Assembly: GCF_044324875.1 (NCBI RefSeq)
Contig: NZ_CP172185.1
Strand: one strand, 5' to 3'
DNA length: 64,000 nucleotides
DNA from: Escherichia coli
Lineage (GTDB): Bacteria; Pseudomonadota; Gammaproteobacteria; Enterobacterales; Enterobacteriaceae
In this document: positions 14,491 through 17,534 of the stretch, piece after piece
Numbering within the stretch: position 1 is the first letter of the stretch
How the letters are laid out: the number at the start of each line of letters is the position of its first letter
The notes under the pieces: model-generated
Told to the model about the DNA's origin: nothing
Seen by the model: only the letters and a program-made list of their open reading frames with translations
Database searches by the model: none
Translations under genes and position numbers: made by a program

Positions 14491-15982
<1,492 letters not shown>

Positions 15983-16010
15983 GCAGCTTTTGAAATGGCG
16001 AGACAGAATT

Positions 16011-16184
16011 TTACTGACTCGCCGCAGCCAACTCTTCTTCTGACACCCCGGTAAAACGCATGATGTCCGCAAGAGGGACTCCGGATTACAGCATTCTTTT
16101 GGCGATATCCGGGGCTTCCAGGCGTCGATCCAATAAATAACCAATCAGGTAACTAATAAGATATTCTCTTTCTGCATCTGTCAT
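16011..16184 (-). pseudogene. degenerate duplicate of the rpnA C-terminal (RpnS-like) module with an in-frame stop
   Basis: Minus-strand translation MTDAEREYLISYLIGYLLDRRLEAPDIAKRML-stop-SGVPLADIMRFTGVSEEELAAASQ aligns with the rpnA C-terminus MTIAERL...[32 protein letters not shown]; nucleotide similarity visible by eye. Confidence 0.5.
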
Positions 16185-16201
16185 TAAAACCATCCTTTAC
16201 G

Positions 16202-16366
16202 TTATTGATGATTTATTTCAGCAAGGTCTTCAACCGTCAGGCTGGTAAATCGCAGAACGTCCTCAAGAGAGACTCCGGCATCCAGCATGGTTTTGGCAAT
16301 ATTTAGGGCGTTGGTACGTATACCTTTCTGAAACCCCTCTTGCCGCAATCTTTCCGCAATAGTCAT
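16202..16366 (-). CDS. candidate in-frame internal small protein (RpnS-like, 54 aa) nested in the 3' end of rpnA
   Basis: Internal ATG ([11 protein letters not shown]...) preceded by AAGGAGAG 6 nt upstream on the coding strand; same frame and stop as rpnA. Confidence 0.45.
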
Positions 16367-17095
16367 TAAACTCTCCTTGTGTTTCGGTGAACGTTCGGCA
16401 ACACCGTCGATAAAATCGTTAAAACGTACCGCATCGCCAGTTTGCAGTATGTAATTAAACAGCCCTTTGATTTGTCTGTCATTAGCGTATCCACTACTTA
16501 ATAAGCAGGCCATTTGCTCTACCAGCCCCATCAGGTCGCGTTGACGAATATGTTTTTGAATTAACTCCAGTAGTGCCATACGTCGGTGCTGCATGATTTC
16601 ATCATCAGGCATGACGGTGACATCAATCAGCGGAAATGCAGAGGCATAAAGCTGCCTTGCCAGGTTGGGATCGGCGAAACAATCAAGCCAACACAGCGAA
16701 TAGGGATAGGGGCTTTCAATACCGTGGTAAAACAACAATGGCACCACCATCGGCAAGGTTTTGTATCCGGCATCCAGGTGATTTTGCATTGCGGCAATGG
16801 CGTAGCGCATCATGCGAAATGCGATCAGTTTGTTTGAGGTGCTTTGATGTTCAATCAGACAATAGATGTATCCTGGTCCTTGTTCCGTTTTCACCGACCA
16901 CAGCACGTCGGAATAGCTTTCACGCAGATCGTCATCAATAAAGCTGCTCGACTCCAGCTTGAGGGTTTTCATATCACAGAGCGCGTGAATAGGTGCCGGT
17001 AAATGGAACGCAAGAAAATCGCGCGCCGTCTCCGGTTGGCGTAAAAAGAGTTTGAACAGCGCATCGTGTGGGGTGGAACTCTGCTTTTTGCTCAT
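16202..17095 (-). CDS. rpnA: Rpn-family recombination-promoting nuclease (transposase_31 / PD-(D/E)XK-like)
   Basis: 297-aa ORF recognised as YhgA/RpnA. Confidence 0.85.
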
Positions 17096-17240
17096 GGCGT
17101 TCCTTCACCTGTTGTTTGAATGCCGCGACTCTACGCGCCACTCCACACCTGTGCATTAGCGAGTTTTCATCCCTGCGAGACGCTTTCAGAGGAACTTGCG
17201 CCGTGCTGCAAGGGTTACATTTTTATGGAAAGTCGCACGC

Positions 17241-17276
17241 AAAAAAGCCCGGATGCAAACGCATACCGGGCTTTTC
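17241..17276 (-). terminator. rho-independent terminator downstream of feoC
   Basis: gcccgg...ccgggc stem followed by T-run on the minus strand, just after the feoC stop. Confidence 0.55.
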
Positions 17277-17297
17277 AAAACAGGTGATGGAGTATGG

Positions 17298-17534
17298 TTA
17301 ACGCAGCGCCCACCACTCGCGCAGGCAGGCTTTGCCTTCCGGGCAGCTTTTACAATTGCCAGAGAGGCAGCCGTCAGGTTCTTCCCGAATCCGCACGGCT
17401 TTGCCCATGCTTTCCAGCTGTTGCAGCATGGCGTTAATCATTGGCTGCGGGGTGTTCAATGTCTGGCTTATCTGGGCCGCTTCCATACGGCCCCGTAACG
17501 CCAGCAAATCACGCACCTGAATAAGTGAAGCCAT
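17298..17534 (-). CDS. feoC: ferrous iron transport protein FeoC
   Basis: 78-aa frame starting [11 protein letters not shown], overlapping feoB stop by 1 nt. Confidence 0.85.

Follow-up and report, generated by a model that had tools for sequence, protein, structure and literature searches.

The rpnA gene in the window, by which we mean the whole stretch of 64,000 nucleotides of Escherichia coli DNA that we analysed, contains a strong translation start signal within its own reading frame. This site is very probably the start of rpnA-S, with a 54-aa product that would serve as the cognate antitoxin of the strain's own RpnA-L through helix-1 binding to the identical tail of the long protein. 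The internal start is a re-discovery of the system described in 2023; the phenomenon was already known, having been established between 2019 and 2023. What the window adds is a non-K-12 tail allele, found in about 16% of complete E. coli genomes, that keeps the same start signal, together with a decayed second tail gene at the rpnA locus, parts of which recur in tails that other lineages express.

Results

The rpnA locus

The feoC-rpnA-bioH region of E. coli is present in the window in reverse orientation, with the following genes:

16202..17095, minus strand: rpnA, full-length reading frame of 297 codons (RpnA-L, 297 aa), a PD-(D/E)XK nuclease toxin that ends in a three-helix tail
15212..15982, plus strand: bioH

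Pfam Transposase_31 (PF04754) matched residues 8-209 of RpnA (E = 2.8e-91), and the NCBIfam RpnA equivalog NF007361 gave the window protein 675 bits against a curated cut-off of 583; this score and the feoC-rpnA-bioH synteny identify the gene as the RpnA orthologue specifically. Residues 1-254 differ from those of a K-12-like allele at 2 of 254 positions (E22D and N144K). The window protein keeps all of D11, D63, E82, Q84, R94 and D165, which were found by mutation to be functionally required in K-12 RpnA (Kingston 2017), and judged by its sequence the toxin looks functional. An RpnA 100% identical to the window's is encoded in the 4.9-Mb E. coli record NZ_CP134663.1, evidently a chromosome that has been filed among the plasmids, and the best full-locus DNA identity among the matches listed from the complete-genome collection was that of strain 7/2, at 99.5%. 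RefSeq records list rpnA alone at the locus; rpnA-S is not annotated, a reminder for annotation pipelines.

A start signal inside the rpnA frame

On the minus strand, codons 239-244 of rpnA read cac AAG GAG AGT TTA ATG and encode H239 K240 E241 S242 L243 M244. The start signal and the reading frame that it opens are as follows:

16373..16378, minus strand: internal Shine-Dalgarno (SD) sequence AAGGAG, formed by codons K240-E241 and separated from the internal ATG downstream by 6 nt
16366..16364, minus strand: internal ATG, codon M244 of the 297-codon rpnA
16202..16366, minus strand: rpnA-S, the internal ORF that M244 opens in frame and the rpnA stop closes, encoding a predicted antitoxin of 54 aa that matches PDB 7TH0

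The 6-nt spacer between AAGGAG and the ATG is AGTTTA, and the TAA stop at 16204..16202 on the minus strand is common to rpnA and the internal ORF. An earlier note on this DNA had described an ATG at codon 244 of 297, preceded at 6-nt spacing by an SD and opening a 54-aa product in frame with the C-terminal part of RpnA. The letters read just so on the minus strand, and the span that it gave, 16202..16390, takes in the SD, the ATG and the stop.

We computed anti-SD duplex energies for every internal in-frame ATG, 424 in total, of the 46 longest ORFs in the window that do not overlap. The M244 site paired most strongly of all 424, at -8.5 kcal/mol versus a median of -1.8 kcal/mol. The ATGs ranked second and third lie 23 and 48 codons inside mechanically called ORFs and are probably the true starts of their genes. 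Another in-frame ATG of rpnA, codon M195 (16513..16511, minus strand), reached -6.8 kcal/mol (rank 11 of 424) and would open a 103-aa product. We found no support in the literature for an M195 start, and this ATG is probably incidental.

A standard promoter and terminator scan of 15900..17300 returned no promoter-like site, and a relaxed scan gave one weak candidate inside rpnA:

16454..16482, minus strand: putative internal promoter (ATGACA, 17 nt, TTTAAT)

This candidate has 10 of 12 consensus matches and no A at -11. An internal TSS in K-12 rpnA has been reported from dRNA-seq (PMC10400941).

The small product and its K-12 counterpart

Zhong et al. (PNAS 2023, PMC10400941) showed M244 to be the codon at which translation of K-12 RpnA-S starts. 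Start-site profiling, which the earlier note had set as a test, does reveal initiation at the site in K-12, where Ribo-RET and Onc112 peaks mark the rpnA internal start (iTIS). An RBS/iTIS mutant carrying K240R, E241D and M244L, at the very codons that make up the SD and the start in the window, lost RpnA-S in K-12, and an SPA-tagged small product was lost in the M244L-bearing mutant (PMC10400941). All five rpn genes gave C-terminally tagged small proteins, RpnS, and RpnL was toxic when RpnS was absent (PMC10400941). RpnA-S blocked RpnA-L toxicity, SOS induction and in-vitro DNA cleavage, and the purified RpnA-L and RpnA-S formed a complex consistent with L2S2 that blocked cleavage; direct biochemical and genetic evidence for an antitoxin function covers RpnA-S, RpnB-S, RpnC-S and RpnP2-S (PMC10400941). 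The statement in the earlier note that Rpn genes encode short intragenic proteins countering the full-length nuclease corresponds to this result of Zhong et al. (2023, PMC10400941). In the later Rpn literature, we found nothing relevant beyond that paper and its commentary.

The structure of RpnA-S is a dimeric three-helix bundle, solved for the 49-aa K-12 form (PDB 7TH0; PMC10400941). When we searched the PDB with the sequence of the window RpnA, 7TH0 was the sole match, and its residue 1 aligned to M244 (E = 2.5e-9). An AlphaFold2 model of the 54-aa product (pLDDT 86) has helices at residues 3-29, 34-41 and 45-52, and its top fold match in the PDB was 7TH0 (probability 1.00, TM 0.65/0.74); the product is thus predicted to fold as the RpnS three-helix bundle. 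A Pfam-A scan of RpnA detected no tail domain, with only a chance-level match to GIDA_C_1st (E = 0.47), and precomputed annotations of the tail use the newer family PF27070, HTH_Rpn_C.

From -28 to +26 around the ATG, the window is identical in nucleotide sequence to the K-12-like allele (locus L002, whose tail is the 7TH0 sequence). Over a longer stretch of 333 nt, which starts 300 nt before the ATG and ends 33 nt inside the ORF, 325 positions are identical, and the 300 nt upstream of the iTIS are about 98% identical. The SD, the spacer and the ATG are the same, and the window site equates to the validated K-12 site; we infer that the 54-aa variant would behave like K-12 RpnA-S.

The 54-aa protein could be made but serve mainly another role, for example as an HTH DNA-binding autoregulator or by decoying a phage factor directed at the RpnA tail. 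Among the fold matches ranked under 7TH0, the model showed weak similarity to HTH domains of TrpR-like proteins and recombinases, and Zhong et al. reported an HHpred relationship of RpnS to HTH motifs and suggested that some Rpn proteins may have housekeeping roles (PMC10400941). The small ORF is also kept in nuclease-deleted rpnA alleles, which roughly 15% of E. coli genomes carry; this retention could point to a role that does not depend on the toxin. Orphan antitoxin remnants are, however, common as decay products of toxin-antitoxin loci, and in the nuclease-deleted rpnA remnants the retention of the iTIS and the tail is as expected for an orphan antitoxin. Given also the direct antitoxin evidence for the four RpnS proteins named above, we consider a mainly non-antitoxin role unlikely and keep to the antitoxin reading.

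Conservation of the start signal

The 55-nt iTIS segment is found at an identity of at least 90% in 5411 of 5426 complete E. coli genomes. We sampled 16 E. coli loci so as to span the identity range, and AAGGAG and the ATG were intact in 15 of them; the exception, L021, has AAGGTG in an rpnA remnant that is annotated as missing its N-terminus. We also took eight plasmid Rpn homologues by tblastn, with protein identities of 28-53%, from Serratia, Salmonella, Aliivibrio, Pantoea, an E. coli IncI plasmid, E. albertii, Vibrio vulnificus and Leptospira. In all eight, which are mutually related and do not amount to eight independent trials, a Met aligned to M244 (MT[ITV]A[EQ]), preceded at suitable spacing by GGAG or GAGG with pairing energies of -5.9 to -6.6 kcal/mol. 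Pairing as strong as this was seen at 4.7% of the internal ATGs in the window. Conservation of the SD in orthologues, the other test set by the earlier note, is therefore seen both within E. coli and in the distant homologues, and the Rpn homologues that retain the start signal range from Leptospira to Vibrio.

We weighed whether the SD-like hexamer and the Met are by-products of a conserved protein sequence (HKESLM, at the linker-tail boundary), with no separate protein initiated in this strain. AAGGAG does lie in frame as Lys-Glu and the Met opens a conserved helix (MTIAE) in all homologues; amino-acid constraint alone could preserve part of the SD/Met motif. However, the residues encoded by the SD vary among the homologues (KE, GD, EG, ED, EE), yet GGAG or GAGG persists at the nucleotide level. 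Since the residues change but the purine core is kept, selection appears to act on the RNA signal and not on the protein alone. Furthermore, the aligned Met has the best SD of any internal ATG of its gene in 8 of 8 homologues, experiments in K-12 have proven this same sequence to be a start, and the crystallised natural product (7TH0) begins at M244. Taken with these points, the by-product explanation is very improbable. Least credible of all, to the point of being almost certainly wrong, is that the SD-like sequence pauses elongation, or provides a folding checkpoint ahead of the tail domain, in rpnA-L translation and is not a start: pausing of elongating ribosomes by internal SD-like motifs has been proposed and is disputed, and it would not explain why an in-frame ATG invariably stands at the optimal spacing, why profiling with initiation inhibitors gives peaks and why the SPA-tagged product is lost in the M244L mutant. 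All three rival explanations are poorly supported against the K-12 experiments, and we retain M244 as the start of an antitoxin.

In about 824 of 5425 E. coli records, coverage of the rpnA locus falls short of 80%. In the sampled remnants L003, L004 and L021, internal deletions (window 16589..17060) remove the nuclease catalytic core, and the iTIS and the tail remain.

Allelic forms of the tail

The window tail allele is 54 aa long versus 49 aa in K-12, and about 40% of the tail positions differ. Part of the difference lies in helix 1:

16301..16333, minus strand: variable part of helix 1 (codons 255-265), where K-12 has EQSKALH and is 4 residues shorter

The HMMER alignment of the window tail with 7TH0 has a 4-residue gap in helix 1, where Zhong et al. 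place the repeat variation: they describe a 4-aa repeat variation of RpnA-S near H261, and L-S specificity set by the number of 4-residue repeats in this helix (PMC10400941). Helices 2-3 of the window tail are divergent from those of K-12 (which ends ...SEEELAAASQ), and the window form has one extra C-terminal residue. The allele of strain A25 is 50 aa long, with 4 residues fewer in helix 1 than the 54-aa window form. Between strains, helix-1 length varies in 4-residue steps, as seen from the window form, the A25 form and the gap against K-12. The O145 RM9872 tail allele is a 49-aa chimera. A 221-nt query specific to the window form (16110-16330) matched 895 of 5426 complete E. coli genomes, UTI89 included, with 853 matches at a coverage of at least 80%.

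A second tail gene and apparent tail swapping

The interval from the rpnA stop to bioH includes about 180 bp with no counterpart in K-12. This stretch holds a second tail sequence:

16011..16184, minus strand: pseudogene of a stand-alone second RpnS-like gene ('rpnA-Ss'), with its ATG at 16184, SD AAAGGA at 16198..16193 and TAA at 16088..16086

The ATG of rpnA-Ss lies 18 nt after the rpnA stop. The TAA falls at codon 33 and leaves 32 aa, and the full three-helix domain is not intact in the window. At the same position, some E. coli and E. ruysiae carry intact 57-aa homologues (L017-L019; HTH_Rpn_C, PF27070) with CAA for TAA, and the codon at the place of the window's TAA is CAA, GAA or TAT/TAC in the intact 57-aa homologues. 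Because the TAA cuts rpnA-Ss to 32 aa while the 57-aa homologues read through, it is a pseudogene of the stand-alone RpnS family in the window strain. PGAP annotates the same stretch in strain EC6868 as a pseudogene with an internal stop, and the RefSeq pseudogene call appears only in some records.

Helix 1 of rpnA-Ss contains three hydrophobic 4-residue repeats, YLIS, YLIG and YLLD (16128..16163, minus strand), whereas the published RpnS repeats are for the most part charged or glycine ones. The idea that these are charged repeats in a shifted frame or in reverse complement was rejected by hand, as the other frames contain stop codons. E. albertii proteins (P0011 and P0014) have an RpnA N-terminal fragment fused to the YLIx repeat region, with differing repeat numbers.

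The last 25 residues of rpnA-Ss are those of the K-12 tail bar one substitution (Leu to Val). By tail alignment, with the expressed rpnA tail of the window as tail 1 and rpnA-Ss as tail 2, the K-12 tail (L002) is tail-2-like from 'aagccct' onward; it is homologous to the downstream tail 2 and not to the window rpnA tail. The O145 RM9872 tail (L007) follows tail 1 up to 'cgatttacc', then tail 2. Since the K-12 and O145 tails differ in their breakpoints, there seem to have been at least two events of recombination or deletion between tail 1 and tail 2. We tentatively suggest, while thinking it somewhat doubtful, that the rpnA locus of the window lineage is a two-cassette arrangement in which the silenced tail 2 of rpnA-Ss might act as a donor, by homologous recombination or by deletion, that rewrites the expressed tail 1 of RpnA, and hence the pairing specificity of toxin and antitoxin; the K-12-type and O145-type alleles look like outcomes of this kind.

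In O145 RM9872, genes for an AbrB/MazE-family antitoxin and a PemK/MazF toxin are inserted between rpnA and bioH (L007 769..1258). The rpnA-bioH spot may be a small hotspot for toxin-antitoxin cargo.

Discussion

In the mechanism that we propose, ribosomes would initiate at M244 of rpnA (SD AAGGAG, 6-nt spacer), the message probably being a short one made from an internal rpnA promoter, and the product would be a three-helix protein of 54 aa with the same sequence as the C-terminal tail of RpnA-L. RpnA-S would dimerise through its long first helix and bind the matching RpnA-L tail, forming an L2S2 complex that would keep the PD-(D/E)XK DNA endonuclease inactive. The specificity of pairing would be set by helix-1 length, changing in 4-residue steps, and the toxin tail and the antitoxin would co-vary because both use the same codons. 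We regard rpnA-S as among the clearest bacterial gene-within-gene cases where the short product antagonises the long one, and rpnA/rpnA-S as defining an unusual toxin-antitoxin and defence architecture.

The plasmid homologue RpnP2 (RpnP2-LS) protects against some T-even phages; it is for this homologue, and not for the chromosomal RpnA, that antiphage activity was demonstrated (PMC10400941). By analogy with RpnP2, the window module may contribute to phage defence. Neither the long nor the short Rpn protein matched PADLOC-DB 2023, a library that predates or omits Rpn.

The decayed rpnA-Ss and the evidence for tail swapping may be the sole parts of this work that go beyond the published description. 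The main text of Zhong et al. mentions tail fusions generically and names rpnC and rpnE alone as second-RpnS cases, and that main text describes neither such a tail rewriting for rpnA nor a hydrophobic YLIx repeat variant (PMC10400941).

Comparison with known systems

The K-12 RpnA-L/RpnA-S pair (PDB 7TH0) shares with the window the feoC-rpnA-bioH locus, the SD, the spacer and the ATG at codon 244, as well as the nuclease part (2 of 254 positions differing) and the three-helix fold of the small product. It differs in the tail, which has 49 aa versus 54 in the window, where there is a 4-residue helix-1 insertion, divergent helices 2-3 and an extra C-terminal residue; the K-12-like tail survives in the window as part of a separate small gene interrupted by a nonsense codon. 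The rpnE/ypaA (rpnE-Ss) and rpnC/rpnC-Ss loci resemble the window in having a stand-alone second RpnS-like ORF, which in the window has its own SD, downstream of the rpn gene. In contrast to these, the window copy is inactivated by the TAA at codon 33 and has the hydrophobic YLIx repeats in helix 1.

Beyond the Rpn family, type II toxin-antitoxin systems such as MazEF likewise use a small protein antitoxin that binds and neutralises a toxic enzyme, and in them, too, orphan antitoxin remnants persist once the toxin is lost. Their antitoxin has a separate gene, whereas the Rpn antitoxin is an in-frame C-terminal isoform of the toxin, so that the tail and the antitoxin co-evolve obligatorily. Cas10d/Cas11d and ArcB-C are like Rpn in that a 3'-proximal in-frame iTIS gives a C-terminal domain as a separate polypeptide; however, their products cooperate or act independently, whereas the short product of Rpn antagonises the long one.
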